Shown here piece after piece: positions 3,569-27,346 of a stretch of DNA of 43,257 bases. The stretch covers positions 1 through 43,257 of the forward strand of contig JAFGKV010000072.1 of the NCBI GenBank assembly GCA_016928395.1. The letters run 5' to 3'. Position 1 is the first letter of the stretch. Every line of letters begins with the position of its first letter. Position numbers and translations under genes: made by a program. Origin of the DNA: Candidatus Fermentibacterota bacterium (GTDB taxonomy: Bacteria > JAFGKV01). The notes beneath the pieces are model-generated. The model saw only the letters and a list, made by a program, of their open reading frames with translations, was not told where the DNA came from and ran no database searches.

Positions 3569-5125
3569 TCAGGGAATGTTGCCGCCGAAATCGGTTTCGC
3601 CAACGATGTTGGATTCCGGGGAGACCTGACCGGCAGCGCCGGCGACGCCCCGGTAGTAGTAGTTGACGCTGGGATCTCCGATGCCGGTGCCGAACGTGTA
3701 CTGGGTGGCTGGCGCGAGAACCACCATCCAGGGAGTGGCGGCACCGGCGTGGAAATAGGGCACGGTGTTTCGGTGGAGATGGTAGGCGGTCGCGCCGGGA
3801 ATCGAATTCCACCAGAGGCGGGCGGACGAGGGGCTGAGCAGCTCTAGATGAAGTTCCATGGCCGGCAAGCCGGGCAGATCGTCCCACTCGTAGGCGTAGG
3901 CCGAGCCGGAGTACGTCCCGTTGGGATTGTCTTGCGGCGCTCCTGCAAGGATCCGCGTCGCGATGCTGACGGACATGCCGAAGCAATCCCCGGCAGCGCC
4001 GTCATTCGGTGTTCGTTTCGCGTGAGATGACCACGTCGAACCATCACGGGAGAAGGAGTAGATGGCTCCCGAGCCGTCACCATTGGCGTCTTCCCCGTGG
4101 GCACCAACGATGACGTGGGTTCCCAGCCCATCCATGCTGACTGACCAGCCGAACAGGTCCCATGCAGCGGCATCGGGGGCAGTGAGCTTCGCCTGCTGGC
4201 TCCAGCTCCCGGCGGAGTAGTAGTAGACAAACGCGGTGCCGGAACTGCCGCCGCCATCATCGTCACGGGGCGCACCGACGATGACGTGGGAACCGATGGC
4301 CGATACCGCCACCGCACGCCCGAACTCGTCGCTGGAGGTGCCATCAGAGGCCTGGAGCGCTCCCGATGGATTCCAGCTCGATCCGCTCAGCAAGAACACC
4401 CGGGCCGATCCCTGATCCTCATTGCTTCCGATGCGATCGCCGGGCGCTCCCACGATGGCCACGCTGCCCAACCCTGAGATGGCAACCGAATAGCCGAAGT
4501 GGTCGCCCTCGGCGGGGTAGGCATTGGAGAGCTCGGCTTCCTGGACCCAGGTGGTACCCGTGGTCCGTCGAAAGACGTAGGCCGACCCAGAATCCTCACC
4601 ATGCTCATCGTCATACGGCGCACCGATGAGCGCGTAGTCCACACCCGCGACAGACGAGATGGAGACCGAGGTGCCGAACTCGTCATACGCCTTCCAGGAA
4701 TCCGTGGGAATGAGCTTGGCCTGTTGACTCCAGGTGGTACCGCTCCGCTTGAATATGTACGCTGCTCCTGCTCCCGTCCCCGTGCTCCACTCCTGCGGCG
4801 CGCCGACAATAGCGTAGTCACCGCAGATGGCCACGGAATGGCCGAAAAGGACACCAGGCTCGCCATCGGAGGCGGTGAGTTTGGCCTGCTGAGTCCACGT
4901 GCCGCTGCCGCGGTAGTAGATGTAGGCCGAGCCCTGGTTGTTATTGCCGTTCACCTGATCTTGGGGCGCGCCGATGATGGCGTAGTCGCCGTTGGTCGCC
5001 ACTGACCAGCCGAACCGGTCATTCGCGGCGCCATCGCTGGGATCCAGCTTCTGCTCAACGGCGTGGGCCGCACCGACGAGGATCAGGGTGATGAGCACTG
5101 CGAGATACGAACGCGAGGCCTGCAT
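3569..5125 (-). CDS. Secreted FG-GAP repeat beta-propeller protein with C-terminal FN3-like domain
   Basis: Signal peptide; seven repeats of FG.SVA..G...IVGAP....GSAYVF....W.QQAKL; about 95-aa terminal domain ending SNIVGETDF. Confidence 0.9.
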   Translation of the reverse strand: MQASRSYLAVLITLILVGAAHAVEQKLDPSDGAANDRFGWSVATNGDYAIIGAPQDQVNGNNNQGSAYIYYRGSGTWTQQAKLTASDGEPGVLFGHSVAICGDYAIVGAPQEWSTGTGAGAAYIFKRSGTTWSQQAKLIPTDSWKAYDEFGTSVSISSVAGVDYALIGAPYDDEHGEDSGSAYVFRRTTGTTWVQEAELSNAYPAEGDHFGYSVAISGLGSVAIVGAPGDRIGSNEDQGSARVFLLSGSSWNPSGALQASDGTSSDEFGRAVAVSAIGSHVIVGAPRDDDGGGSSGTAFVYYYSAGSWSQQAKLTAPDAAAWDLFGWSVSMDGLGTHVIVGAHGEDANGDGSGAIYSFSRDGSTWSSHAKRTPNDGAAGDCFGMSVSIATRILAGAPQDNPNGTYSGSAYAYEWDDLPGLPAMELHLELLSPSSARLWWNSIPGATAYHLHRNTVPYFHAGAATPWMVVLAPATQYTFGTGIGDPSVNYYYRGVAGAAGQVSPESNIVGETDFGGNIP

Positions 5126-5242: not shown

Positions 5243-5285
5243 AGAATATTCGCCCCGCTCAGATTTTTCTCAGATTCCGCGCAGA
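5243..5285 (-). promoter_or_regulatory. Direct-repeat operator/promoter copy 1 (TCTGAG-N5-TCTGAG-N9-TATTCT)
   Basis: On + strand: CTCAGA 5258-63, CTCAGA 5269-74, CGCAGA 5280-85 (11-bp period); -10-like TATTCT at 5243-48; upstream of the FG-GAP gene. Confidence 0.7.
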
Positions 5286-9466: not shown

Positions 9467-9509
9467 AAGATACGTCGCTCGCTCAGATTTTTCTCAGACT
9501 CCGCTCAAC
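9467..9509 (-). promoter_or_regulatory. Direct-repeat operator/promoter copy 2 (TCTGAG-N5-TCTGAG-N9-TATCTT)
   Basis: CTCAGA 9482-87, CTCAGA 9493-98, CTCAAC 9504-09; -10-like TATCTT at 9467-72; upstream of the LVIVD gene. Confidence 0.7.
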
Positions 9510-10844: not shown

Positions 10845-12422
10845 TTAGTCATGGGCCACTCGGCCACGGTCGAGTCTTTCGTTCAGGGAGAACTCATGCT
10901 CACCCACGGTGTTCGATGACACTGATTCCTCCGCGCCGCTCCTGGCCCTGGCGCGGAAGAAGAACGAGATGGCAGGGTCGCCGATTCCATCTGAGAACTG
11001 CAGCGAGGTGTCAGGCGCGGCGACGGTCTGCCAGGGCACGCCCGCGATGTCGAACTGGGCACTGCCGGACCGGTAGAGGTCGTAGTGGGTTGCTCCGAGC
11101 ACCGCCGACCAGGAGAGCCGTGCCAGAGCCGGTGTCAGCAGCTCGATAGACAGCGTCATCGAGCTCAACGGTGAGTTGATCCGCCACGCATGGACGAGAC
11201 ACTGGTCACCGTCGGCCCGGTGCTCGAGTACATACAGGATGCCCCGCTGCCGGTCGAAGCATGCCGCCCCAACCAGCGAATACTTCTCCCGGTAGGGATC
11301 ACGCTCGGCATCGAACATCACGGCATCGATATCCAGTGAGTCGTACGGTTGCGGCGCCCAGGTCGGCTGTTCCCCCCGCGCCACAGCCCCCAACTCCTCA
11401 GGATCGAAGAGGAGGATCTGAGTTTTCACGCTGTCCGACCAGTAGCCTCGGCCATCATAGGGCCAGCGCGGCACCGGAGGATACGGGGGTTCATCAGGCC
11501 ACACGGTACCATCCAGAAACCCGTACCACCATGACCCCATACCCTTGGTCCCCACAAACGCGACCGCGGACTTCTCCCCCGCCGTGACCCATGCGCCCCC
11601 ACTCCACTCGTCATCGGGGTTGAAGGTGCGCATCTTCATGGAGTCATCCACTGCGATCTCCGGGATGCCCGGCTGCTGGATGCCGTAGAGCAACAGCGGG
11701 GTCACCTGCGTCAAGGTCGCCCCAGACGGAGGCGGATTCCCTTCGTTCCATGGGCCATAGGCAAACAGGGCGGGGCCAAGTCCCGACCAGAAGCCCTCCC
11801 GGAATCGGCCCGTGGCCAGGCGTTGCCCCGGCGTGTTCGCCGAGGCCCACTCTGCAGGTATGTCGAACAGGTAGTCAGCGGCGGCATAAGGGGTGTAGCC
11901 GTCAAGCCGCCACGGCCCCGCCGGCTGCGGGCTGGAAAGGTCGAGTTCGCTCCAGCCGTGGGTCGGCACGAACTCCTGGAAGTGTTGGCTCCAGCAGAAA
12001 TGCAGCTTGCCCGATGCCTGCGCTCCTTGGGCCGGTAGGTAAGCAAGCCCCGCCTGCGGGATTTCCAGGTATCCGAACATGCCGCCGGTGATGTCGGAGA
12101 ACGGCTGCAACGTCGTGGCGGCGTTCAAATCGTCCAGGTTCTTCAACGGAGATATCACCGGCACCGGGATGCTAATCTCGGAGACCAATTGGAGTTGGTT
12201 GTGGCCCAAGGCGAAGAGGGACCCGGGGAAGCCGTCGGCAGGGCCGTCCAGGTCGCCGCCGGGATAGTAGGTTGCGGCGAAGCCCGACCAGTTCCAACCA
12301 TAGTCGCCCTCATCGGGCAGGCGAAACGCACCCAGGTACTCGAAGTCTGACGGATGGAGAAGCTCTCCGGAGAGCGAACCGAAGGTGATCATGACCCAGA
12401 CAATTGCAGATAGCACTGGCAT
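10845..12422 (-). CDS. Secreted hypothetical protein (probable beta-propeller) with C-terminal FN3-like domain
   Basis: GGAGG RBS; signal peptide; EYLGAFRLP N-terminal motif; terminal domain ARLSWSAVLGATHYDLYRS...GIGDP..FFFRA...SNTVGEHEF. Confidence 0.85.
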   Translation of the reverse strand: MPVLSAIVWVMITFGSLSGELLHPSDFEYLGAFRLPDEGDYGWNWSGFAATYYPGGDLDGPADGFPGSLFALGHNQLQLVSEISIPVPVISPLKNLDDLNAATTLQPFSDITGGMFGYLEIPQAGLAYLPAQGAQASGKLHFCWSQHFQEFVPTHGWSELDLSSPQPAGPWRLDGYTPYAAADYLFDIPAEWASANTPGQRLATGRFREGFWSGLGPALFAYGPWNEGNPPPSGATLTQVTPLLLYGIQQPGIPEIAVDDSMKMRTFNPDDEWSGGAWVTAGEKSAVAFVGTKGMGSWWYGFLDGTVWPDEPPYPPVPRWPYDGRGYWSDSVKTQILLFDPEELGAVARGEQPTWAPQPYDSLDIDAVMFDAERDPYREKYSLVGAACFDRQRGILYVLEHRADGDQCLVHAWRINSPLSSMTLSIELLTPALARLSWSAVLGATHYDLYRSGSAQFDIAGVPWQTVAAPDTSLQFSDGIGDPAISFFFRARARSGAEESVSSNTVGEHEFSLNERLDRGRVAHD

Positions 12423-12649: not shown

Positions 12650-12676
12650 CGGGGCGGGGACCGGGACCCCGCCCCG
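12650..12676 (-). terminator. GC-rich hairpin after the fibre/anchor operon
   Basis: CGGGGCGGGG-N7-CCCCGCCCCG, 10-bp perfect stem about 18 nt past the stop at 12694; no U tract, so it may be a REP instead. Confidence 0.45.
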
Positions 12677-12693
12677 TACGAGAACTCGGACTC

Positions 12694-13311
12694 CTACCGT
12701 TCGGCTCCGGACGACGCATCTGATTCACCTGCGCGTCCCATCAGCGGGATGTCGGCGCCGAAGTCGAATTCCCCGGCCGTGTTGGATGCCGGAGATGTCT
12801 GGGTCGCGTTCCGCGCTATGCCGCGGAAAAAGTAGTTGGTTGCCTCATTGCCGACACCGGCCGAGAAATCGTATTGGGTCGTTGGTACGGCAACCGTCTG
12901 CCATGGGACTCCCGACGGATTGAAGAATGCCCCGGTGCTCCTGTACAGATCGTAGAAGGTCGCACCCGTGACCGTGGCCCAAGAGAGACGCGCCGCGGTG
13001 GGGTTGAGCTGCACTATGTTCAGAACCATGGGCAGAAGGGCCCCTCCACCTCCGCTGGCGGCATGCCAGAACCCATGGTGAGTCTGGTAGGCGCCGCCTG
13101 CGGAGACGCCAACCGGCGAACTCTGCCCCGTAGTACCGGTGACGACGTACGCCCCTCCGGTCATGCGCGCACCGCCGCCGGCAATTACCGACGGCGACAC
13201 GACATACTGGGCCGCTGCCGGTGACGGGTACAACAGGAGTGTACCCGCGAAGAACACCGCCAGCAGCGCGAGCACTCCCGGGCCGGGTGTTCGCGCGCTC
13301 CTATCGCTCAT
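12694..13311 (-). CDS. Small secreted protein: Gly-rich GGG..GG.Y..TG..GQ..GG.Y...GFW module plus FN3-like C-terminal domain (putative fibre anchor)
   Basis: GGAGGTG RBS; start overlaps the upstream gene's end; signal peptide ending PAAA-Q; terminal domain ends SNTAGEFDFGADIP. Confidence 0.85.
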   Translation of the reverse strand: MSDRSARTPGPGVLALLAVFFAGTLLLYPSPAAAQYVVSPSVIAGGGARMTGGAYVVTGTTGQSSPVGVSAGGAYQTHHGFWHAASGGGGALLPMVLNIVQLNPTAARLSWATVTGATFYDLYRSTGAFFNPSGVPWQTVAVPTTQYDFSAGVGNEATNYFFRGIARNATQTSPASNTAGEFDFGADIPLMGRAGESDASSGAER

Positions 13312-15052
13312 CACTCACCTCCCGGGGATCACCGGCGAGACCTGGGCCCTGGCGATCCAGCGCCGTTTGCTTTGAAATGGCGTTGGGCTCGGCGGGTTCG
13401 TCCACGGCGAGTACCTTCGACGGGGTGAAGATGCGGTGATCTCTGCCTTCGGTCTCGGGGAAGCCATAGGCAACCGGGTAGAGCAGCTCGCCTCGGTCAC
13501 AGATGCTGCTCTCCGACCCCTTGGACTCTTCGACCGGGCGGGCGAGGGTTCGGATGACCGGATCATCCCGGTCTGCCATGGCCATCCACGCCACGATCCT
13601 GTCAGGATCGCCGTAGACGGTAAAGGCCGAGCCATCGGCGCGCCACCGGTACCCCGCGAGGAAAGGCATGCCCTCGGGCGTCAGATGCACCGATGCCTCG
13701 TCTTCCTTCGCCAAAGCCGTGAAGTACTCAGGCATCGTGACCACCGCTTCGCCATTGGAGCCGAGTTTCACCGTGCCCCTGTAGATGAGGAGATTCTCGG
13801 GCGATTCGACGAAGTTGTGCCGCAGGAGTTTGTTCTTTGGATCCAGCGGATGATCGATGAGGAACGAGCCGCTGCCCTTGCTGAGGGAGCCGGTGACATT
13901 GACATTGCCCGCGAACCAGCCAGCCCAGCCGGACGCGGACGACGAGGTCGCGCTGAGCCCATAGTTCGTGCCTGTGGCGGCGGTCGCTACGGCCCTGACG
14001 CCCACGGTCGCGCCTTGGCCTTCAACACCGGTGCCGCTGTTGGCATTGCTCTGGAAGTAGCCACCCGTCCCGAAGTTCGATGAAGCATTGCCCGCCAGGC
14101 CGTAGACGCCGACAGGCCGGGGATCGCCGGCGGATCCGGCATCGCCGTCGCTTCTGCCGTAAACCCCGTAGGTGCCCCCGTAGTTGTTGTTGTAGGACGA
14201 TCTTCCGTAGACGCCGATGGATCCGTCGTCGCTCGAATAGCTCCGGCCATACATGCCGAACGTGACGCCAGAGGTGGCGGTGGCGTATGCCCTGACGCCG
14301 GTTCCCGAGGTCGAGGCCGTCTCAAACTGGCCGCCATAGCAGGTCCCGGTGGTGGCGGCGGCGATCCCGTACACACCCCGTCCCGAGGGCGAATCGGTCT
14401 GGCCCATCACGCCGTTGCATGATCCCGTCGAAGCCACCGCCTGGCCCTTGACTCCTGAGCCATTGGGCGACCAGGAGAGGAAGAACCCGCCGTAGTTGTC
14501 GGTCCCCGTGGTGTGCAAGTTCCGGCCCAGCACCCCGGCCATGGTGCTGGAGGTTCCTGCCGCATCGAAGATGCCGCCGTAGACCCAGCCGGTGGTCCCC
14601 TGGTTTTGTGCCTTGATGGTCGCGCCGCCGTTGACGGCGCCGATTACCTCGGTGCCCGGCACTAGCCCGCTGGCCATGTAGGCGTAGCCGGTGGAAACGA
14701 GCCGCTGCCTGGGTGTCTGATCAGCACCGGCAAAGGTCACCAGAAGCCAGTAGTCGGCATCAAAGGCGAGGTTCAGAGCTGGCTGGGGGCTCTCGCCCAA
14801 GAGTACATTGAAGATGCCGCCCGAGAGGGCGATGGAGCGGGTGCCGCTGTCCCACAGGCTCGTACCGCCCGTAGCCACATTGTAGATGCGGAACCGCATG
14901 TTGTAGGTGTTGTCGGGAACGGGAGTTCCCGATGCATCGGTGACCTTGCCCTGATAGCTGATGAGAGTGGGGATCTCGGCGGACGCGGCGGTCGCCAGTA
15001 TCGCGAGACCAAGCGCAAGGAACACGCGCCATGAGGGAGTTCGGTGAATCAT
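13301..15052 (-). CDS. Secreted fibre-like protein A (ISYQG N-domain, GVYG glycine-rich repeats, C-terminal FLIDHPLDP domain)
   Basis: AAGGAG RBS; signal peptide; ISYQGKVTD..G.P...F.IY....GG..LW head; many G(V/G)YG repeats; GSLSKGSGSFLIDHPLDP..LRHNFVESPE tail-fibre/chaperone-like end. Confidence 0.85.
   Translation of the reverse strand: MIHRTPSWRVFLALGLAILATAASAEIPTLISYQGKVTDASGTPVPDNTYNMRFRIYNVATGGTSLWDSGTRSIALSGGIFNVLLGESPQPALNLAFDADYWLLVTFAGADQTPRQRLVSTGYAYMASGLVPGTEVIGAVNGGATIKAQNQGTTGWVYGGIFDAAGTSSTMAGVLGRNLHTTGTDNYGGFFLSWSPNGSGVKGQAVASTGSCNGVMGQTDSPSGRGVYGIAAATTGTCYGGQFETASTSGTGVRAYATATSGVTFGMYGRSYSSDDGSIGVYGRSSYNNNYGGTYGVYGRSDGDAGSAGDPRPVGVYGLAGNASSNFGTGGYFQSNANSGTGVEGQGATVGVRAVATAATGTNYGLSATSSSASGWAGWFAGNVNVTGSLSKGSGSFLIDHPLDPKNKLLRHNFVESPENLLIYRGTVKLGSNGEAVVTMPEYFTALAKEDEASVHLTPEGMPFLAGYRWRADGSAFTVYGDPDRIVAWMAMADRDDPVIRTLARPVEESKGSESSICDRGELLYPVAYGFPETEGRDHRIFTPSKVLAVDEPAEPNAISKQTALDRQGPGLAGDPREVSDER
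14645..14980. repeat. About 335-bp direct repeat, copy A (shared N-domain of the fibre genes)
   Basis: Aligns by eye without gaps to 15968-16303 (offset 1323 bp), roughly 90% identical, mostly third-position changes. Confidence 0.9.
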
Positions 15053-15205
15053 CGCAGACTCCTTTCTCCATGAGTTCGATGGTCATGTCTGGTTGGGGCA
15101 GTGCCCCATATTGCTCGTACCGTGGCGACTGCCGAGTGCGAGACTTCCTCGTCAGAGAACCTTCGGAAGCCGATCATCGGCGAATACGAAGGCACGGTTC
15201 GCATC

Positions 15206-16378
15206 TTAGTATCGCCATATGCGGACGCGGAACTTCTCGCCCGGATACATGTTGCTGCCTTTCTTCACCTGGAGCGTTGTCGAGGTCAGACTGTGCCAGA
15301 AGAAGCCCCAGCCGCTCACGTCGGCGCCCGCGAAACGGTTCGTCACGCCCAGCCCACTCACGTCGTGCTGGATATCGACCACGTAGTCAGTGATGTTGCC
15401 GCCAACACTGTGGGTGAGGGTCACATCGCCTCCGACCGTGCCGGCCTGCCACCCGCTGTCATAGGCCGGAGCGGGGAAGGATGACCCCGAGACAGTCAGG
15501 TTCCCGTCTATATTGACGTCGCCCATGAAGTAGCCGGCCCATCCGCCGGCAAGGTTCTCGGAGTAGATCCCACACCCCTGAGAGGAGTACGAGACGAAGG
15601 ATCCTCCGTAGTGCTCGCCCGAAGTGGCCGTCGATCTGCCGTAGACACCGGTATGGGGCGCTTCGCCGTGTACGCCGCGGCCCGAGTTTGACAGGCTGGC
15701 GAAGTAGCCGCCGTAGCACAGCCCCGTCGTCGCTTCGACAGCCCCATAGACGCCATACCCCTGGGGCGAATAGGAGATGAACGACCCTCCGTACAGGGCG
15801 CCCGTCGTGCCCGTGGCCTTGCCGTAGACCCCGGTGTGAGGCCCCTCGCCATAGACGCCCTTGCCGGAGGTCGACTGGCTCATGAAGTACCCGCCGAAGC
15901 GCGTCCCAGAGCCGGAGGTGTTTACGGCCTTGATGGCGCCTGAGATGGACGAAGCAACCGAGCCCACTACCTCGGTGCCCGGTACTAGCCCGCTGGCCAT
16001 ATAGGCGTAGCCAGTGGAAACGAGCCGCTGCCTGGGGGTCTGATCAGCGCCGGCGAAGGTCACCAGAAGCCAGTAATCGGCATCAAAGGCGAGATTCAGC
16101 GCCGGCTGGGGGCTCTCACCCAGGAGTACATTGAAGATGCCGCCCGAGACGGCGATGGAGCGGGTGCCGCTGTCCCACAGGCTCGTACCGCCCGTGGCCA
16201 CATTGTAGATGCGGAACTGCATGGTGTAGTTGTTGTCGGGAACGGGAGTTCCCGATGCGTCGGTGATGCGGCCCTGGTAGCTGATGACCTTGGGTATCTC
16301 GGCGCCAGCCACGGTCGCCATCATGATGCCCAGTGCCGCCAGAGCCGCGGAGAAGGGAAGTCTCAAGGTGCGATGCAT
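15206..16378 (-). CDS. Secreted fibre-like protein B (ISYQG N-domain, GVYG repeats, C-terminal PAYDSGW head domain)
   Basis: AGGAGG RBS; signal peptide; N-domain almost identical to protein A; 61-aa internal duplication; distinct C-terminus PAPAYDSGW...FRVRIWRY. Confidence 0.85.
   Translation of the reverse strand: MHRTLRLPFSAALAALGIMMATVAGAEIPKVISYQGRITDASGTPVPDNNYTMQFRIYNVATGGTSLWDSGTRSIAVSGGIFNVLLGESPQPALNLAFDADYWLLVTFAGADQTPRQRLVSTGYAYMASGLVPGTEVVGSVASSISGAIKAVNTSGSGTRFGGYFMSQSTSGKGVYGEGPHTGVYGKATGTTGALYGGSFISYSPQGYGVYGAVEATTGLCYGGYFASLSNSGRGVHGEAPHTGVYGRSTATSGEHYGGSFVSYSSQGCGIYSENLAGGWAGYFMGDVNIDGNLTVSGSSFPAPAYDSGWQAGTVGGDVTLTHSVGGNITDYVVDIQHDVSGLGVTNRFAGADVSGWGFFWHSLTSTTLQVKKGSNMYPGEKFRVRIWRY
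15968..16303. repeat. About 335-bp direct repeat, copy B
   Basis: Paralogous to 14645-14980. Confidence 0.9.
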
Positions 16379-16427
16379 GGGATTCCTCCTTCGGTGATGT
16401 GAATGGCTTCTCCCGTGTCACGCCCTA

Positions 16428-16466
16428 ATGATGCACATTCCACCTCAGAGTTTTCTCAGACTCCGA
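16428..16466 (-). promoter_or_regulatory. Direct-repeat operator/promoter copy 3 (TCTGAG-N5-TCTGAG-N10-CATCAT)
   Basis: CTCAGA 16444-49, GTTTT, CTCAGA 16455-60, followed by CTCCG as in copy 2; upstream of fibre gene B. Confidence 0.7.
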
Positions 16467-16735: not shown

Positions 16736-18268
16736 CTAATGGGCCAGCGGGGCCACCCAGAACCACCTACCGGAGGACGATACCGAGGATGAGTGAGCGG
16801 TGACCCGGCAGAAGAAGCCATCGAGGAACTGCCTCGGAGGGACACACCAGGATTGAGTCGTGACAATGGGCAGCTCCGGGCTATGGCCCGGCCAAGGCGC
16901 CCGGGCACAGATGACTTCGTACCTGTCAACTTGGAGGGGGGTGCCCGCCACGCTTCTGCTCACGGGCGCCCAGGTGATCACCAGCCCGCTGTCAGAGCGC
17001 GTCACGCACAACTTTTCCACCGGCTGGGCGGTCACCAGGGCCTCATACCCCGCCCGGAGTCCCGCCAGCGCCTGGGCGGACAGCCGGGCCGAAACATCCG
17101 ATGGGTCGGGCACCGCGGCACCGCGGCGACTCCACGCAGCGTCGAGTTGATCGGCAACCGCGAACAGCGAGTCTTCCACGGCAAAGGTAATCGGCCACAG
17201 GCCCTGGCCGGTCTCCTCACGCAGCTTGTAGGAATCGAGGTAGTCATCGTAGGGGCAGTCAAACAGAAGGTCACGTATGAGGTTCGCCGCATCGCACAGG
17301 GGCGCAGACGGCGAGCCAGACAAAGCTCTGGGAGGTGGCCCTACGGGCCAGACGGGCACAGCCATTGTGGACGCCGGTTGGCCAAGCATGGCCCACAGCG
17401 TGGTCTGCCAGGGCTCATGGCATGGCTCGATGCCCCGGATCACTACGCCGGAAACCGTCCCCGCACGGCAGATGCTTAAGTAGGTCCAGATGTAGCCATA
17501 CGGCACATCTGGGTTCCACTGCCCGGGATAGGGAATCGGAATGGGCTGGCTGGCATCATCAGAGAAATCCCGAGCATGGTACCTGAGGAGCGAGCGGTAG
17601 TCTAGGCTGTCGCCCACGCAGAACTCCGAGATCAAAGCGACGGACCTAAGGTACCGCGCCATTCCGTTCGTACCCCCACCGGCCATGGAGAAGTTCGTGC
17701 GCACTATGAATCCGGCAGGATTCTGCAGCGGGTCATCGGCGTCATACTCCCAGTGGAGAGAATCCTCCACCTCGAACATGACGGCAGCGCCAGCGGCGTC
17801 AATGACCCCGTAGGAGGCGTGGACATCCCGCATGCCGGATGCGCTCGTGCTCTCAAGAAAAAGCGAGAAATCCTCGACGGTCGCGCAGCGCCCCAGGGCT
17901 TCGTGCATGAGGGAGCCGTTGGTGAGATCAGACCTGCCGGTCAGGTCTAGGGAGTTGGCGTTCACAATGGCAAATCCGGCTTCGTTGACACCCATCCAGG
18001 CTAATGTGTCGCCGGCGTTTGCCACGGCGATGAAGCGGTACCGATTCACGGGGTTGTCGTTCCAGACCACGTGATTATCAGGATAGGCGCCTTGGTCACG
18101 GACTTTCCACACCAGGGGCCGTCCATCCGAAGTCGCGCGGCCCGCGGCCACGCCGATCGTGCAGGCATGGCTTGGGCCGCAGGCCGCCGCAGCCAGGATC
18201 AGCACGCCGCATACCGAAACATCGAGCACGGCCCCAAAAACCCATTGGATCACGCGGCGGTTGCGCAT
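16736..18268 (-). CDS. Secreted Ntn-hydrolase (peptidase C45/acyltransferase-like) with C-terminal FN3-like domain
   Basis: ATG 18268 with AAGGGG RBS; signal peptide ending SHA then N-terminal nucleophile CTIG..GRATSDGRPLVWKVRD; WMGVNEAGFAIVN; RTNF motif. Confidence 0.85.
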   Translation of the reverse strand: MRNRRVIQWVFGAVLDVSVCGVLILAAAACGPSHACTIGVAAGRATSDGRPLVWKVRDQGAYPDNHVVWNDNPVNRYRFIAVANAGDTLAWMGVNEAGFAIVNANSLDLTGRSDLTNGSLMHEALGRCATVEDFSLFLESTSASGMRDVHASYGVIDAAGAAVMFEVEDSLHWEYDADDPLQNPAGFIVRTNFSMAGGGTNGMARYLRSVALISEFCVGDSLDYRSLLRYHARDFSDDASQPIPIPYPGQWNPDVPYGYIWTYLSICRAGTVSGVVIRGIEPCHEPWQTTLWAMLGQPASTMAVPVWPVGPPPRALSGSPSAPLCDAANLIRDLLFDCPYDDYLDSYKLREETGQGLWPITFAVEDSLFAVADQLDAAWSRRGAAVPDPSDVSARLSAQALAGLRAGYEALVTAQPVEKLCVTRSDSGLVITWAPVSRSVAGTPLQVDRYEVICARAPWPGHSPELPIVTTQSWCVPPRQFLDGFFCRVTAHSSSVSSSGRWFWVAPLAH

Positions 18269-18500
18269 GGCAATCCCCTTGTTCGCATCATGACGCTTCA
18301 CCATGGATGCAGGCAAGAAGCAGCTACCGTCCGCACGAACCTTCATGCCCTCCACGGGGAGCCCGCGCCCCGAAGCCCTGGAAGAAGCCGGCGTATCGCA
18401 AGGGTCCTCAGTGAGAGCCTGAGGTTCAGTCGATGCTCCGAGGGCGTTGGGTGCCATTGCCACAGGGTTCTTACTTCACGAGAGGTGGCCCGGTCACACG

Positions 18501-20369
18501 TCACCGAGCCATCCGCACTACCCGGAATCCCAAGGATGAGCTCCGCTGGTTGGGCGAAGCACTCAGGCGCGCGGCTGATCTGCAGAACGTGGCTTTCGTC
18601 TTCCAGCTCCCTCCTCGCTGGACCCGCATCACCCCCTGAGAGGGACCGGCAGGGTCTTGCCCGGCGCGTGTGGCATACGGGCCATACCAATCCCAGCACC
18701 ATTCCGCCACATTGCCCGCCATGTCGAACAGACCCCAGGTATTGGCGGAAGTCTGCGCCACGTCACGGCTACTGCTGCCCGCATTGTCAGAGTACCAGCA
18801 ATGGCTCCGATCGGGAAGAGCGTTCCCCCACGGGTACGCAGTGGCCGTTTTGGCCCGGCAGGCATACTCCCATTCAGCTTCCGTGGGCAGGCGGTAGCCA
18901 GGCGTAGCACGATCCCAGTACACCGCCCCCGATTCGACCGGAGGAATACCCTCGAAGACCTTGGTTAGGTGTTCATCGGCGTAGTAACAGGGCTTCAGCC
19001 CCTCCTGCTGGGAGCGGCGGTTGCAGTAGACGATCGTGTCGAACCAGGTCACCTGGTCAACCGGGCGCTGCGGATTACGGAACCGCGAGGGCGCTCTTCC
19101 CATCACAGTCTCCCACTGGGCAACGGTCACTTCTGTCGCCTGCATGAAGAGCGGCATCGTGAGCGTGACCTGGTGGGGCGTCTCTTCTCCGTCGCGCCCC
19201 AGTTCCCCGGGAGGGGATCCCATGGTGAAGGTTCCCGAAGGGATGGCGACGAACCCTTCCGGAGCTTCCGCGGGAATGAGAGTCGTTCCGTCATCGAAGA
19301 CGAACTCGATCTCCTGCTCAATCCATGCCGACTCCGAGCCTCCGTCATCCACAACCTGGGCGTAGATCCGCTGCCTGCCGTCGGCAACATCGAAGGAGAA
19401 GGCGCCGGTCGTCTGCTCAACGGCCTCCTTCGGATCCTTCACCGCACACCGGTACCGGGCTACTGCCCCGTCATCGGAGCCCTCCAGAACGACCGTGAGC
19501 TTTGTCCCGCGCACCTTCTGGCCGCTGGAGGGCGACACGATGCGCACGGAGGGAGGCTCGTCGATGACACGGAACTCCATCCTCTGGGGGGGCGAGTAGT
19601 TGCCGTCACAATCCTTGGCCTGCACCTGAAACACATGGCTTCCCGTGGGGATGTCACTGAACTCGACCTGACCGCGCTTCGTTTCCACGGGATCACCATC
19701 ATTCATCTGATAGCGATAGCCATCGATGCACCGTTCATCTTCCCCCAAAAAGCGGAAGGCTACGCGGGCGGCATCACGGCGATTCATCACGGCTTTGGGG
19801 GCCTCAAGGAGGCGGACCCGGGGCGGCTTTCCCGTGGAAGCGGGAACCGGCAGGGGCGCGATGTACGGCCGGTCAGGTTCGATAGGCGGCAGGGCCTGCC
19901 CCGCTTCATCCGGCGTGCAACCCAGCTCGTGGGCGACCTGGGGCATATCCTTGAACAGGTCCTTCAGCTTCTGGCCCATCCGATTCACGGAACACCGCAC
20001 ATGCGCGGTCTGGACATCCACCAGCTCAGCGGTCATGAAGTACTCGCCGTCAACCTTTGACAGTGAGCCCAGCACGATCCATCTGACATTGAGAATCTCG
20101 CCCATCTGGATGGCGCACTCGGTTTCCGTGCAGTCGATGAGCTGCACCTGCTGCTCTTTGAGGATGGCCTCCATGTTCTTGCGGTCGACTACCACGAAGT
20201 CCCGCTGGTTCACGAACTCACTGCGCAACCGGTCCGAGATGATGTCGGCCTCTTCCGGCTTCACCAGGTTCGCCTTGAAGTACAGCACGGCCAGGCGTCG
20301 CTCGAGATCGCCGGCCCGGGCAAAGCCCGCCATGAAGGTGATGCACCAAAGGGCGACTATTCCACGCAT
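18501..20369 (-). CDS. Periplasmic protein: CsgG/TolB-N-like domain + Ig-like domains + FGE-sulfatase (SUMF1-like) domain
   Basis: GAGGAG RBS (alternative ATG 20375); VVDRKNMEAILKEQ..CAIQMGEILNV motif; FTMGSP, YRLPTEAEWEYACRA, NTWGLFDMAGNVAEWCWDWY, RGGSW, GFRVVR. Confidence 0.9.
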   Translation of the reverse strand: MRGIVALWCITFMAGFARAGDLERRLAVLYFKANLVKPEEADIISDRLRSEFVNQRDFVVVDRKNMEAILKEQQVQLIDCTETECAIQMGEILNVRWIVLGSLSKVDGEYFMTAELVDVQTAHVRCSVNRMGQKLKDLFKDMPQVAHELGCTPDEAGQALPPIEPDRPYIAPLPVPASTGKPPRVRLLEAPKAVMNRRDAARVAFRFLGEDERCIDGYRYQMNDGDPVETKRGQVEFSDIPTGSHVFQVQAKDCDGNYSPPQRMEFRVIDEPPSVRIVSPSSGQKVRGTKLTVVLEGSDDGAVARYRCAVKDPKEAVEQTTGAFSFDVADGRQRIYAQVVDDGGSESAWIEQEIEFVFDDGTTLIPAEAPEGFVAIPSGTFTMGSPPGELGRDGEETPHQVTLTMPLFMQATEVTVAQWETVMGRAPSRFRNPQRPVDQVTWFDTIVYCNRRSQQEGLKPCYYADEHLTKVFEGIPPVESGAVYWDRATPGYRLPTEAEWEYACRAKTATAYPWGNALPDRSHCWYSDNAGSSSRDVAQTSANTWGLFDMAGNVAEWCWDWYGPYATRAGQDPAGPSQGVMRVQRGGSWKTKATFCRSAARLSASPNQRSSSLGFRVVRMAR

Positions 20370-20475
20370 GCGCATGTCTCCTCTTCCGCGTTTCTCGGGT
20401 CCAGGTATACGGCCACATCTGCGCACGGCCTGAGCCATCAGTGACCAGCCCTGAGGGAACGCGGATCTGTTTCCA

Positions 20476-22572
20476 TCACGGCCCCGGCGAGCTGTCCGTG
20501 AGATAGTCGCGCGGGGTGATCGCTCCGCTCTGAGAAAGATCGAACACGTACCACCACCTCCCCGTGCCCGACTGCGGCACGCTGAAGCTCGCCGTCACCT
20601 GGTTGCCCGAGTACACGATGACCCTCGCTTCTGAGGTCTTGATATCCGGCGTACCCGAGAAGTTGTACACACCATACCGGCAACCAGCGATGAGCTGATA
20701 GATGGTGATCGTCTCAGGACCTTCTCCGGATGTGTCGTCGACATCGAGTTGGACGAACGGCTCAGACGCTTGGCTGCCGCGCGAGGAGTAGTAGATGTGA
20801 TACTGGTCACCCACCCAGAGATGGCTATCGAGATCGTTGGGACTTGTACCCCACGTCAGCACGATGCGGTACTGACCCGCGGCCAGCTCCCGGCTCAATG
20901 AAAAGTTGGCCACCATAGGCTGCCCAGCCACGACGACGTCCCTACTCTCGGTGATATAGCCCGAACGTGTTGCCGTGAGCCTGTAGGTTCCGTCTGAAAG
21001 CGCGGGGAATTCATACCGCCCGTCAGCGCCGCTCGAGGTTGACCGGGTCACGGGACCGGTGAGATCAACTCGCGCGTCCGCCAAGGCGGACCCGGTTTGC
21101 GCATCGGTCACGGCTCCTGAGATGCCGACGGTCGCCACCACGGCGCGTACGACGACCGTTGGTTCGTCGGGATCATTGCTCAGGATGACAACGGTACCTG
21201 AGGAGACGGTGAGGTCGGCGCTGGTGTTGGCCGTGGCGGTCAGCTCCTGGGTCTCACCCGGCGCCAGGGCGAATGATGCGGGGCTCACTGACAGCCAGGG
21301 GAGATCGTCCGCCACGGTGTCGACTTGCAGGATAAGCGCGCCGGCGTTGCGCACCGTGATAGTCAGGGTGGTATTCTGGCCAGGCAGAAACGGAAAGGTA
21401 ATCTCCCGGGGAGAGACTTGGATGTCGGGCACGGCCGGCTCACCGAACCCGGGACGAACGGGCCGGAAGCCGCAGATGGATGCGGGCTGCACCGGCTCAA
21501 GTTGCGATCTCGCCGGAGAACGACAGGCGAAATCGGGGAAACTGTAAGCCCCTCCGCGTATCACACGGAAGGTGCCCGTCGAGGGGCCGCGGGGGCCTGC
21601 CGAGGGAGAAGCGGCATAGTAGTCGGGATCGAACCAGTCATTGCACCATTCGCTTACGTTGCCGTTCATGTCATGCAGGCCCCATGCGTTCGGCTGGCGG
21701 GTTCCGACGTCATGGGTCTGATTGCCCGAATTCCCCTCGAACCAGCAGTATCGGCCGTCTATGGCGTCGCCCCAACTGTACTCGGTGCTCGTTCCCGCCC
21801 GGCACGCATACTCCCACTCCGCCTCAGTGGGCAGCCGATACCCGGTCGCATCCCAGTTCATCCCCACGGTTTGGCGCTGGGCCGCGAGGTCTGCATCATC
21901 ATAGAAGGCATCATAGCCCTCGCGACGGCTCAGCGCATTACAGAATGCGGCCGCCTGGAACCAGTTCAGGCCTTCCACCGGCCTATTCGCCCCCTGGAAG
22001 ACCGCGGGATTATCCCCCATGACGGCGAGGTAGTACTGCTGACGCACTTCGAAGCGCGCGATGGAGAAGGGGCTCAGGGTTACCGGATGCACGGGCCGTT
22101 CGATGGATTCACCGACATTTGGAGAGCCCATGTTAAAGGCGCCGCCGGCCACGGCGACCATGTCCAGCATGGCACCCGCGCGGCTCATAGTCACCCTGGC
22201 GGTCTGGGTCGCCCCCAGAACCACAGTCACCGTCGTCTCCCCCCAACTCGAGAGCAGGCCACCTCGGAATGCTTCGACCCGAACCCTCAGTTGGCCGACC
22301 GGTACTTCCAGCTCCAACCTGCCTCGGGCGCCTCCCTCCAGGATTTCCATGGCGCGGCGGACGACGAGGTCTGGCCCTTGAAACACCATGACAAAGGCAC
22401 TGTCCACCAATGCCGGGCTTGCCATGCAATAGCCTGGCGCATCGGTCCATTCGAGCTGCAGTATGAGGCGGGCAATGCCCGGAGCGGCGGGATCGTGCTG
22501 GCTCGAGCAGCCCATGAGGCTCATGAGCAGGAGGACCGCACACCGGTTCATCCACAGCGTAGTGTGTGTCAC
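20476..22572 (-). CDS. Lipoprotein: FGE-sulfatase + Ig-like (ASH) + carboxypeptidase-regulatory-like + YfaP/DUF2135-like domains
   Basis: Lipobox LMG-C; RLPTEAEWEYACRAG; NAWGLHDMNGNVSEWC; SNDPDEP; ISGAVTDAQTG; LTWGTSPNDLDSHL..LDVDDTSGEGPETI; start uncertain (22551/22572/22590). Confidence 0.9.
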   Translation of the reverse strand: MTHTTLWMNRCAVLLLMSLMGCSSQHDPAAPGIARLILQLEWTDAPGYCMASPALVDSAFVMVFQGPDLVVRRAMEILEGGARGRLELEVPVGQLRVRVEAFRGGLLSSWGETTVTVVLGATQTARVTMSRAGAMLDMVAVAGGAFNMGSPNVGESIERPVHPVTLSPFSIARFEVRQQYYLAVMGDNPAVFQGANRPVEGLNWFQAAAFCNALSRREGYDAFYDDADLAAQRQTVGMNWDATGYRLPTEAEWEYACRAGTSTEYSWGDAIDGRYCWFEGNSGNQTHDVGTRQPNAWGLHDMNGNVSEWCNDWFDPDYYAASPSAGPRGPSTGTFRVIRGGAYSFPDFACRSPARSQLEPVQPASICGFRPVRPGFGEPAVPDIQVSPREITFPFLPGQNTTLTITVRNAGALILQVDTVADDLPWLSVSPASFALAPGETQELTATANTSADLTVSSGTVVILSNDPDEPTVVVRAVVATVGISGAVTDAQTGSALADARVDLTGPVTRSTSSGADGRYEFPALSDGTYRLTATRSGYITESRDVVVAGQPMVANFSLSRELAAGQYRIVLTWGTSPNDLDSHLWVGDQYHIYYSSRGSQASEPFVQLDVDDTSGEGPETITIYQLIAGCRYGVYNFSGTPDIKTSEARVIVYSGNQVTASFSVPQSGTGRWWYVFDLSQSGAITPRDYLTDSSPGP

Positions 22573-22583
22573 GACATGCCCCC

Positions 22584-23687
22584 CTACCACGCCCGCACCA
22601 GCGTCGAGCGAACCTCATAGCCGGTGAGGCTCGTGTCGCCGGTGCCGGTCCACGCTGAGCCGCCGAGAACTCCCGCGGAGAAGGCGAGGCTGGTCCCCCT
22701 GCCCAGCCTGATCTTTGGCCCGACGGATAGGCCGAACACGTGGCCGCCTCCAAACCCATATCCGTTGTCGCCCTTGAATCGAACAAACCCGGATGTCTCC
22801 GCCTTCAGCCACGGGGCCACGCTATGCCCGACGCGCACCCGAAGGGCACCCTCGGGGCCGAAGGAGTTTTCGTCTTCGGCCACCAGTTTGTCGCCGTCGC
22901 TCACCATGCCCCTGGCCCGGAGGCGTACCCAGACGCTCACCTCCACCGGGTCGAATGAGCCCGGATACAACGCCAGCACGGAACGGACGTCCGTACGAGG
23001 CCCCAAGGCGCGCACCTTCTCATCCTCCCAGAAGTCGCTGCCGTAGAGCACCACGGCCGCGTCGGCCTTGAGCAAGGCGGGCGTGGCCCCCACCGAAATG
23101 CGACGGTACAACGCTGCGGTAAGCACCAGTTCCTCACCGGGATTCAGCTCCTCCTCGGCGTCATCGTACGGCTGGAAGGGCGCCCGAACCGAATACCCCG
23201 CGCCAGCGGCCAGGGTTGTCCCTCCCCACTGCCGGGCCACGGCAACGCCCACTGTAGCGCAGAGCCCGTCAACGGGGCTGTCCATGGTGAAGCCCAATTC
23301 GTCGCTGGCCACCAACGCCGCGATGGGAAGCTCATCCTCCTTCAACCGGGTGCTGGCCGTCGGTACGCTGACCCCGCCGCGCACCAACAGGCGCTGATCC
23401 AGGGCATACCACGATGTCTTGACCACCACATTGCCCAGGGCAGACAAGTCTTCCTCTGCGACGTCAAGCGTCGATCGGCCCGGGTTGGCCCGCAAGCTTA
23501 GGCCGAATCGGTCTCCCAGCGGCAGGTCAAGCCGCAGCGGTGCGGCCGTTTGCGATATGTCCAGACTTGAAGCGTCGGAGGATTCCCAGTGTCGTAGCGC
23601 GAGACCGATCTCTAGCCGTCCCTGCCGCCGCGCCTCGGTACTGCCCGCGATTGCGACGATCAGCACGAGGATGAGTGATGCGCGCAT
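22584..23687 (-). CDS. Putative outer-membrane beta-barrel protein
   Basis: Signal peptide; alternating amphipathic beta-strands throughout; C-terminal aromatic beta-signal (YEVRSTLVRAW); GAGG RBS. Confidence 0.75.
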   Translation of the reverse strand: MRASLILVLIVAIAGSTEARRQGRLEIGLALRHWESSDASSLDISQTAAPLRLDLPLGDRFGLSLRANPGRSTLDVAEEDLSALGNVVVKTSWYALDQRLLVRGGVSVPTASTRLKEDELPIAALVASDELGFTMDSPVDGLCATVGVAVARQWGGTTLAAGAGYSVRAPFQPYDDAEEELNPGEELVLTAALYRRISVGATPALLKADAAVVLYGSDFWEDEKVRALGPRTDVRSVLALYPGSFDPVEVSVWVRLRARGMVSDGDKLVAEDENSFGPEGALRVRVGHSVAPWLKAETSGFVRFKGDNGYGFGGGHVFGLSVGPKIRLGRGTSLAFSAGVLGGSAWTGTGDTSLTGYEVRSTLVRAW

Positions 23688-23696
23688 GGGTTCCTC

Positions 23697-25169
23697 CTAG
23701 GGAAAATCGATGTCGATGACGATGGTTGGCGGCCCCGATGAGCCTCCCACCGATGGTTCCCGTGACCCTTCGCCGGGATCGATCGGGCCCGTAGCCACAT
23801 CGGCCAGATCCTCCAGCGCCTCGGAGGCCAGGTCTTCGGATGCCTCCGAGGCTCGGTCCTCCGGGGCTTCCCACACCTGGTCCTCCGGCGTTTCCGCGGC
23901 CGGATCCACCATCGCTTCTGAGGCCTCCTCTTCATCCCCGCTACCCGCAGCCTCCCCCTCAACCACACCTGGGCTTTCTCCTGCTCCCTCATCTGGCCCG
24001 AACTGCCACCCCAGGAAGTCACGCTCGAAGTGGTCCACGCCCTCGGCCACACGGTCAGTCTCAGCCAGTTGCTGAGCCTTGTCGGCAGCTTCCTTGAACC
24101 CCGGATCGGCCTTCGCCGCCGCTTGGTAGTGTGTGTGGGCTGCAGGCCAGTCGCCCACATCCTCCGCCCCCAGACCGCGACAGAACGACATGAAGGCCAG
24201 GAGACTTCGAGTCGGCATGCGCGCGATGTCTTCACGCTCGATCTCGGTGAGTTCGACGCCAAGACGGGAGATTGCCTCGAAGACGATGGTCTTCTCAAGG
24301 TCGAAGACCTGATCGAGCGTGCCCCCCGCCGGCCTCAGATTGTCGAGCCGGCCCTTGGCCACGTCGGCCAGGGCGGTTTCGATCTTTACTCCGGCAGCGT
24401 GGTCGCGGTAGATCCCGTTGAGCACGGTGCCCGCACCGGTGATTCTGCCCATGCGCAGAGCGAAGCGATCATCGACCACACCGCTGGCTCCAAGCCCGAT
24501 CTCCTCCATCAGCGCTGCGATGCGGGAGCGCTCCAGAACCTGCAGAGTCTTCACCTTGGAGAGATCAGTTATGATGAACTCGGCCAATCCCCGGCCCAGC
24601 ACCTTCAGTTCCGACGACACGCCTATGTAGCGCAGAGGGAACACCCCGACGGTCATCCGGTCTCCTGAGATGCCGCGGGACGACTCTTCTCTCACCAATT
24701 GCGCCATCTCGTCTTGAATCCGTTGTCGAAGAATGAGCTGGATACGCCCCCGGATCTTGCGCTGGGCCTGGCGCGAGGGAACGGCGGCATAGCTTTGATA
24801 CACCCGAACAGCTCCGTCGATGTCGCCTGACCGCTCCCGCATGAGGCCCCGGTAGAGCACCCCCTCGGCAGACCAGAACCCACGGCTCTGGGCGTGTGCC
24901 AGCCTCACCTCGGCCTCCCCGAACCGACCCGATCGATAGTAGGCCTGGCCCAGGAGATCCAGGGCTTCGCCGTTGCTCGGGTCTTCACGGGCCAGTTCTT
25001 CAAGCAGCAGTAGGGCCTCAGTGAGCCTGTTATCCCTGACCAATGACCTCGCCCGGCCGATGCCGCTGGAGGCACAGCCCAGCACCAAGGCGAGGACGGC
25101 CAAGGATGCAGGGGCCACCCGGCACAGCAGTGCCGCAGTGGGAAATCGTGAGGGCGGTGTCGGCTTCAT
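23697..25169 (-). CDS. TPR + CsgG/TolB-N-like lipoprotein with acidic C-terminal tail
   Basis: AGGAGG RBS; lipobox VLG-C; TPR helices; GLAEFIITDLSKV..LQVLERSRIAALMEEIGLGASGVVD...RMGRITGA; D/E-rich tail ending PPTIVIDIDFP. Confidence 0.85.
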   Translation of the reverse strand: MKPTPPSRFPTAALLCRVAPASLAVLALVLGCASSGIGRARSLVRDNRLTEALLLLEELAREDPSNGEALDLLGQAYYRSGRFGEAEVRLAHAQSRGFWSAEGVLYRGLMRERSGDIDGAVRVYQSYAAVPSRQAQRKIRGRIQLILRQRIQDEMAQLVREESSRGISGDRMTVGVFPLRYIGVSSELKVLGRGLAEFIITDLSKVKTLQVLERSRIAALMEEIGLGASGVVDDRFALRMGRITGAGTVLNGIYRDHAAGVKIETALADVAKGRLDNLRPAGGTLDQVFDLEKTIVFEAISRLGVELTEIEREDIARMPTRSLLAFMSFCRGLGAEDVGDWPAAHTHYQAAAKADPGFKEAADKAQQLAETDRVAEGVDHFERDFLGWQFGPDEGAGESPGVVEGEAAGSGDEEEASEAMVDPAAETPEDQVWEAPEDRASEASEDLASEALEDLADVATGPIDPGEGSREPSVGGSSGPPTIVIDIDFP

Positions 25170-25285
25170 GGCGCCTCCTGCCGTCGGTGAGCGATGCTCA
25201 GCGACCGGTCATGCAACCTGAGTACTCGGATTCACAAGCACGAGTACATGTTCTCCCATCGCCACGCCGCCCCTCGCCGTTTCTT

Positions 25286-27052: not shown

Positions 27053-27346
27053 GGGCACCTCCGATGCGAGGGGTAACACGTTCGCGCACACCTCGTGGCC
27101 CAGTATCCGCCCGGGCGGATACTGAAGGCTAACTGACTCTGCCGCATAGCTTTGCGACGCCACACCGATCCGTCAAGCGTCTTTGATTCCGGGGGCAACA
27201 TCGCAACCACGGAAAGCCGTGATTGCGCGGGCCCAGCAGGGGTCGCTATGTTGTACAGATAGTTCGGATCCCACTCATGCCTGTGTCTGCGCGAGTCCGA
27301 AGTCCGAACGCGACGCTGTGAATTGAACCAATAGGGAGGGTATGTC

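Follow-up and report, generated by a model that had tools for sequence, protein, structure and literature searches.

How two secreted fibre proteins that carry no sorting signal of their own might reach the cell surface and be held there is the question raised by a three-gene locus in a Candidatus Fermentibacterota bacterium (assembly GCA_016928395.1, contig JAFGKV010000072.1, positions 1 to 43,257; this whole stretch of 43,257 nucleotides is referred to as the window). The locus encodes two fibres, B and A, and a small partner protein, which we call the adaptor (Table 1). A preliminary description of the DNA had taken the fibres for trimeric, tail-fibre-like adhesins that dock a constant base onto the small protein as their anchor. 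This proposal is supported here by a modelled 3:1 interface and by gene linkage across phyla, and the part of the anchor predicted to bind is a 50-residue module only. We consider it probable that the locus encodes two trimeric fibres of the MAT superfamily together with a plug-in adaptor, which caps the fibre base and lends it the export or anchoring route of the lineage.

The gene layout agrees with the operon proposed at the outset: the three open reading frames (ORFs) share one orientation on the minus strand, and the start of the adaptor gene overlaps the stop of fibre A. For the adaptor, a start at the ATG at 13311, giving 205 aa, is more likely than the GTG start. Both fibres begin with the predicted Sec signal peptide (a hydrophobic stretch ending in A-x-A, as judged by eye), followed by the shared ISYQG base, which is 92% identical between fibres A and B across 105 aa, and by glycine-rich shafts (21-24% Gly) with 4-5 GVYG-type units of the form G-[VILA]-[YFWHR]-G. 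Neither fibre ends in a tag of the T9SS (type IX secretion system) or in an FN3-like terminal tag, and the same is true of all base-domain ORFs (0/34 with such a tag) of the searched genome, which comprises 4.79 Mb and is 94% complete.

Binding between base and module is supported by a model of three copies of fibre A residues 26-150 with one copy of adaptor residues 36-90, built on custom alignments of 122 and 127 rows; the 3:1 stoichiometry was set beforehand from a repeat seen in the module by eye (Y37, Y56, Y76). The interface score ipSAE reached 0.92, 0.93 and 0.92, compared with 0.00 for the best of three controls; the mark applied to this score is reached by 116 of 157 solved and by 2 of 215 mismatched pairs, counts that are only roughly valid for a job of this kind. 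At least 96% of the contacts were common to the complex runs. The confidence measure pLDDT of the module was at least 91 in the complex, below 50 for the module alone and 28 with an unrelated chain, so that the module is predicted to be unfolded alone and ordered once bound. The three base chains assemble around it at pLDDT 88-89 (the score covers the partner only, and the shaft lies outside the model). One module contacts all three protomers through the same surface on each, centred on the ISYQGKVTDA strand: V57-T61 of the module face one copy and Y76-H79 a second, and W83 lies packed against Q34, G35 and G80. The whole module is buried in the modelled interface, with about 280 contacts, and the contact residues rank with the best-conserved positions in each of the two families. 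Neither by sequence nor by fold did the PDB yield a comparable solved complex, and it is therefore unlikely that the model merely recalls a known complex.

The genes of fibre and adaptor also co-occur elsewhere, across many phyla. In the genome itself, 7 of the 11 adaptors have a base gene no more than 250 bp away and 2 others come after fibre ORFs truncated at contig ends, and linkage was found at 11 of 14 loci in the genomes of two relatives. Starting from fibres, a module was nearby at 31 of 76 loci in genomes; without this family the figure is 28 of 70, and at 21 of these 28 the module lies within 250 bp on the same strand. In metagenomes it was nearby at 24 of 78 loci, 15 of them within 250 bp. 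Starting from adaptors, a base gene was adjacent at 17 of 24 loci, 3 others had a fibre-like ORF and 4 nothing (by eye), and for Chloroflexota linkage was seen by eye at 16 of 27 loci. Reversed-ORF controls for the linkage searches gave 0 matches, and with 11 modules in 4.8 Mb a locus of 12 kb would contain one by chance in about 3% of cases. These counts are tallies and not tests, and loci from kin are not independent. They bear on the view that the genes are neighbours merely as co-regulated secreted proteins and that the predicted interface is an artefact. A repeat upstream of the operon is indeed common to unrelated secreted-protein genes, and structure predictors can dock glycine-rich strands on exposed sheets; however, the adjacency is kept in bacterial phyla far apart from each other and in an archaeon, the adaptors bearing different tags, and none of the three complex controls scored above 0.00. 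We regard such a coincidence as very improbable.

The nature of the fibres was assessed from their base domain. The predicted fold is a 7-strand sandwich with a helix (pLDDT 86) without a Foldseek match in the PDB at E ≤ 0.001 (the best VIA Z of 7.0 is not distinctive); a PDB sequence search gave no match for the fibres or the base, and Pfam none for fibre B, fibre A or the adaptor. Both fibres match NF053851, the NCBIfam model of the Bdellovibrio MAT N domain (24.4 and 31.4 bits, E 2e-5 and 1.5e-7), in its first half only and below its cut-off of 60 bits, which none of the 32 matches in the genome exceeds. Among base domains gathered from many phyla, 120 of 122 match this model at E ≤ 0.01 (best E 2e-17), and because of this we assign the fibre family to the MAT superfamily in a broad sense, as judged from sequence. 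More than 524 matches were confirmed in genome contigs, with records labelled Omnitrophota, Planctomycetia, Armatimonadota, Ignavibacteria, Zixibacteria, Chloroflexota, WOR-3, Nitrospirota and archaea. Nine partial loci in viral contigs (L190-L198), all bearing signal peptides and with the base split by a long insertion, are probably host-derived; the fibre family is cellular. In Bdellovibrio bacteriovorus the MAT N domain presumably binds a surface element that awaits identification, according to the accessible part of Caulton et al. 2024 (PMC10769870).

The predicted FN3 fold of the adaptor's terminal domain and its presence on other secreted proteins agree with the preliminary description, since the domain also ends the window proteins at 10845-12422 and 3569-5125. 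In the genome, 65 of 69 matches lie within 30 residues of a C terminus, and the tail and the T9SS type A-like C-terminal domain (CTD) are mutually exclusive (none of 132 ORFs with a type A-like CTD has an FN3-like domain). By a crude hydrophobicity test, signal-like N termini occur in 33 of 58 FN3-tailed and 69 of 104 type A-like CTD ORFs, compared with 594 of 1671 background ORFs. The FN3-like tail is a probable lineage-specific sorting or anchoring domain. Two of the 11 adaptors of the genome carry a type A-like CTD in place of FN3, and this swap between paralogues is the most direct sign that the tail may act as a sorting tag. The genome encodes SprA above cut-off and 7 PorV-like matches. 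NCBIfam gave no match for the window adaptor, and no T9SS CTD (TIGR04183/PF18962, TIGR04131) on any of the three window proteins. A secreted protein like the C45-family autoproteolytic acyltransferases (16736-18463, minus strand) ends in a more distant FN3-like tail. We found no published description of the module or of a fibre-adaptor cassette (most subscription papers lay outside the search), which is consistent with a system not characterised before, and the portion of a 2026 review that was available (PMC13689555) does not mention an anchor.

A profile of module residues 36-86 matches 851 clusters at 50% identity; the following tallies of tags and positions refer to the best 150 of these, and tags were assigned to taxa only via named loci. 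In 143 of the 150 proteins the module starts within 75 residues of the N terminus, and the tails that follow it are diverse: dockerin-like (23), LPLV-type (18), T9SS type A CTD (13), PWLxLLL-type (12), IFxxGFE-type (7) and FN3-like (7), besides single ends which by eye we take to be PEP-CTERM-, MYXO-CTERM- and IPTL-like. NCBIfam confirms type A CTD, type B CTD and IPTL-CTERM tags on fibre-adjacent partners, and the partner with the type B CTD is followed by a PorP-like ORF (by eye). The LPLV-type tails are those of Chloroflexota. No fusion of module and base occurs among the 150 proteins. A PDB sequence search with the module gave nothing for the module itself; the profile matches were to EF-hands that belong to its tags. 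As a rule, T9SS CTDs are removed by cleavage after export, and this would suit a module that binds the base transiently, as a trimerisation chaperone or secretion escort, with the fibre then held by something else; so would the 3:1 excess of fibre genes over partner genes, and Bdellovibrio, which has MAT fibres and no partner reported in the accessible literature. However, complete burial of the module in the modelled interface, and its fusion to membrane-anchored tags (IPTL-CTERM, proteins ending in a transmembrane segment) and to pilin domains, would rather suit a permanent mounting, and we consider a transient role unlikely.

Besides small adaptors, the module heads several other kinds of proteins. 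In Omnitrophota-type loci (L060:6774-12323, L069:7289-12292, L070, L076, L088) it opens large proteins whose genes come immediately after that of a short fibre. Two of these large proteins match models for the Rhs core and YD repeats; the fibre may here be the targeting arm of an Rhs/YD-repeat protein. These loci, together with the occurrence of MAT proteins in vesicles noted in the accessible part of PMC10769870, would fit a complex that forms but is released, whether in soluble form, within vesicles or as a larger secreted protein's targeting arm. For the window such a release is decidedly unlikely, as its adaptor has a tag and no cargo domain, and the terminal tags of many adaptors are of the anchor type. 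A Ca. Iainarchaeum genome (L128, L117) encodes a base-domain fibre of 2100 aa two genes upstream of a module-headed protein. Finally, the N-terminal third of NF058579 (model positions 21-78), which describes the tip pilin PamT of the candidate phyla radiation (CPR), is matched by 89 of the best 150 module proteins (E ≤ 0.01); the best match in the genome of the window scores 19 bits against a cut-off of 240. In four metagenome loci (L218, L253, L262, L267) 1.5-2.2 kb separate a module-headed PamT-like gene from the gene of a base-domain fibre downstream of it, in operons consisting of a pilin (sharing a common C domain with the PamT-like protein at 29-50% identity), a chaperone-like gene with a terminal transmembrane segment, the PamT-like gene (two in L253), another gene ending in a transmembrane segment and then a giant fibre. 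These loci are called CPR-like from their gene content only and are all far below the PamT cut-off, and no NCBIfam Pam model matched their other genes. The available text of the Pam preprint (Troman et al. 2026, PMC13278184) describes a tail-fibre-like gene co-localised with pam and leaves open how the Pam pilus recognises its host. As further observations, the fibre gene L253:7863-10781 contains a segment resembling an intein C terminus or Hint domain near residues 644-762, and in the CPR-like loci L200, L204, L213, L239 and L267 an excisionase-like helix-turn-helix protein with a probable membrane segment is encoded upstream of the giant fibre gene (by eye).

A phage origin was also considered, that is, remnant tail-fibre genes of a phage, a tailocin or an extracellular contractile injection system with a baseplate adaptor. 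PHROG gave weak matches to the C-terminal region of fibre A, and some relatives have phage-like shafts. However, all paralogues inspected bear signal peptides, a search of the 24 larger ORFs of the window found no structural genes of phages, in line with the preliminary description, the 94%-complete genome has no tail sheath, and the few viral-contig loci, signal peptides included, stand against the hundreds of genome matches given above. With signal peptides present and no linked tail or baseplate genes, an identity as prophage or tailocin tail fibres was rejected, and the likelihood of a phage remnant is close to nil.

For fibres mounted by an adaptor the following sequence of events can be envisaged. 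Fibres and adaptor would cross the inner membrane by Sec, as their signal peptides suggest, and the fibres would trimerise like their MAT homologues, possibly assisted in folding by the C-terminal domain of fibre A. One adaptor module would then fold onto three bases, its beta-strands pairing with the ISYQGKVT strand of the protomers as in the model. The adaptor tag (FN3-like here, a T9SS CTD or another tag elsewhere) would carry the complex to the surface, hold it there or both, as the exchange of tags suggests, and shaft and tip might serve adhesion to cells or particles, following the MAT precedent.

Several observations weigh against this interpretation. The complex model was built on custom alignments, unlike the set on which the tool was calibrated, and a profile test of the three-repeat structure of the module was not significant (permutation 0.39). 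Position is the sole ground on which the FN3-like domain is proposed as a sorting signal, the passage of an assembled trimer through SprA is an assumption, and PorU was matched in the genome only below cut-off. Two of the 11 adaptors of the genome stand alone, 26 of its 34 fibre genes lack a partner within 2.5 kb (a contig end is close in 14 of the 26 cases), no module was nearby at 42 of 70 genome and 54 of 78 metagenome fibre loci, and 2 of 5 fibre-bearing genomes gave no module match. Of the genomes sampled, the profile found the module in just 8 of 81 from the phylum Bacteroidota and 6 of 41 from the phylum Chloroflexota; the form common in Bacteroidia may have diverged too far for it. In the genome of the window, other fibre paralogues probably draw on the 11 adaptors in trans as well. 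Fibre genes often lie at the ends of short contigs (C1, C46, C83, C92, C96, C119, C332), suggesting that repeats or recombination among paralogues break the assembly there. The DNA of the two bases in the window is 92-98% identical across about 280 bp.

The tips of fibres A and B were thought to be two variable ones. They do differ from each other, but that of fibre A is the common C-terminal domain of the genome: the 28 complete fibre paralogues fall into 4 tip classes, and 25 of them, fibre A included, belong to one. This domain has 493 homologues, and of 119 others listed at 60-79% identity, 98 also have the base, on unrelated shafts, some of which match Bd2133. Since it is conserved irrespective of the shaft, the domain is a candidate folding chaperone analogous to S74, which fits better than a receptor-binding tip; the S74 peptidase/chaperone domain itself (SDxxxK) has no Pfam match on either fibre. 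The tip of fibre B is likely a free ligand-binding domain, because it is rare and some of its homologues carry it in tandem on non-fibre tagged proteins.

With respect to expression, a regulated promoter and a downstream hairpin had been proposed. The direct repeat TCTGAG-N5-TCTGAG upstream of the operon is a probable activator or sigma-factor box, but a scan of the coding strand for sigma-70 promoters found none. The repeat has 3 exact copies in the window (4 with at most 1 mismatch versus 0.2 expected) and 6 in the genome versus 0.32 expected, 5 of which precede fibre or tagged secreted-protein genes; the copies mark a putative small regulon of secreted proteins. With its 11-bp period and its promoter position the repeat resembles the boxes of response regulators. 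One copy precedes a fibre operon in a related genus, and the repeat was not found in a same-genus genome (82% complete). The hairpin is present, but it has no U tract and a terminator scan on the coding strand gave no match. Elsewhere in the window, consecutive CsgG-like, TPR and FGE-sulfatase domain genes (18501-27163, minus strand) possibly form an outer-membrane module unrelated to the fibres.

Table 1. Features of the fibre-adaptor locus and its surroundings (positions in the window)
Feature	Position	Strand	Description
Fibre B gene	15206-16378	-	390 aa: signal peptide, MAT-N-like base, Gly-rich shaft, rare DSGW..RIW tip
Fibre B base domain	15986-16300	-	Residues 27-131
Fibre B tip	15209-15523	-	6 homologues found
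Fibre A gene	13301-15052	-	583 aa: signal peptide, base, Gly-rich shaft, conserved C-terminal domain
Fibre A base domain	14663-14977	-	Residues 26-130; 7-strand beta-sandwich and helix (model)
Fibre A C-terminal domain	13418-13921	-	Residues 378-545
Adaptor (small partner) gene	12694-13314	-	206 aa from GTG; start overlaps fibre A stop
Fibre-base-binding module (predicted)	13057-13209	-	Residues 36-86, Gly/aromatic
FN3-fold C-terminal tag	12751-13038	-	Residues 93-188
Direct repeat TCTGAG-N5-TCTGAG	16444-16460	-	Upstream of fibre operon
TCTGAG-N5-TCTGAG copies	5258-5274, 9482-9498, 16444-16460	-	Precede FG-GAP protein, LVIVD protein and fibre operon, respectively
GC-rich hairpin	12650-12676	-	After adaptor stop; no U tract; single copy in genome

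Beyond the window, we lean, by a modest degree, towards a more general view: one 50-residue module might serve MAT-type fibre trimers as a universal socket, in bacteria at large and in some archaea, fused to the tag or carrier of each lineage (T9SS CTD, exosortase tag, Chloroflexota or dockerin-like tails, FN3-fold domain, Pam pilus tip, Rhs) and mounting exchangeable fibres on the envelope, at the tips of pili or on giant secreted proteins. If true, the missing anchor of the MAT fibres would be accounted for, as would the presence of a tail-fibre gene next to the pam operons of CPR, and several unnamed C-terminal tags would be marked as sorting signals. A 3:1 interface with named contact residues makes the questions of the MAT anchor and of Pam host recognition, as posed in the available parts of PMC10769870 and PMC13278184, testable. 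In addition, the adaptor would offer untagged trimeric proteins a way onto T9SS or other routes, and the module can be used to probe uncultured phyla for candidate sorting tags, among them the FN3-fold tail found on about 65 proteins here.

Four known systems invite comparison. Phage tail fibres are trimeric and have a modular base-shaft-tip build, but the fibres of the window are predicted to be Sec-exported, are chromosomal and lack the tail genes that accompany phage fibres and baseplate adaptors, and for the fold of their base the PDB offers no clear match. The sorting of T9SS cargo (type A CTD with PorV, type B CTD with PorP) has parallels in SprA and PorV in this genome and in adaptors that end in a type A or B CTD; in contrast to T9SS cargo, the fibres have no CTD, the tag of the window adaptor has an FN3 fold and the module also occurs with non-T9SS tags. 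With the Pam pilus the adaptor shares a module that matches the N-terminal third of the PamT model, and a fibre gene is nearby in the four metagenome loci, but the window adaptor itself has no NCBIfam match and thus falls short of the NF058579 cut-off. The Bdellovibrio MAT fibres likewise have a signal peptide directly before a conserved beta-rich N domain and form a large paralogue family (21 members according to the accessible part of PMC10769870, compared with 34 here), and relatives of the window fibres have S74-type ends (a cluster with a TM-score of 0.82) and Bd2133-like shafts. The window fibres differ in their partial match to NF053851 below its cut-off, in the lack of S74 and the GVYG-type shaft, in the common C-terminal domain of most paralogues and in a dedicated adaptor gene, for which the available text on Bdellovibrio describes no counterpart. 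The fibres thus appear as a variant of the known MAT fibres, and the adaptor, undescribed in the literature searched, as a candidate surface anchor for this fibre family, as the modelled complex suggests.

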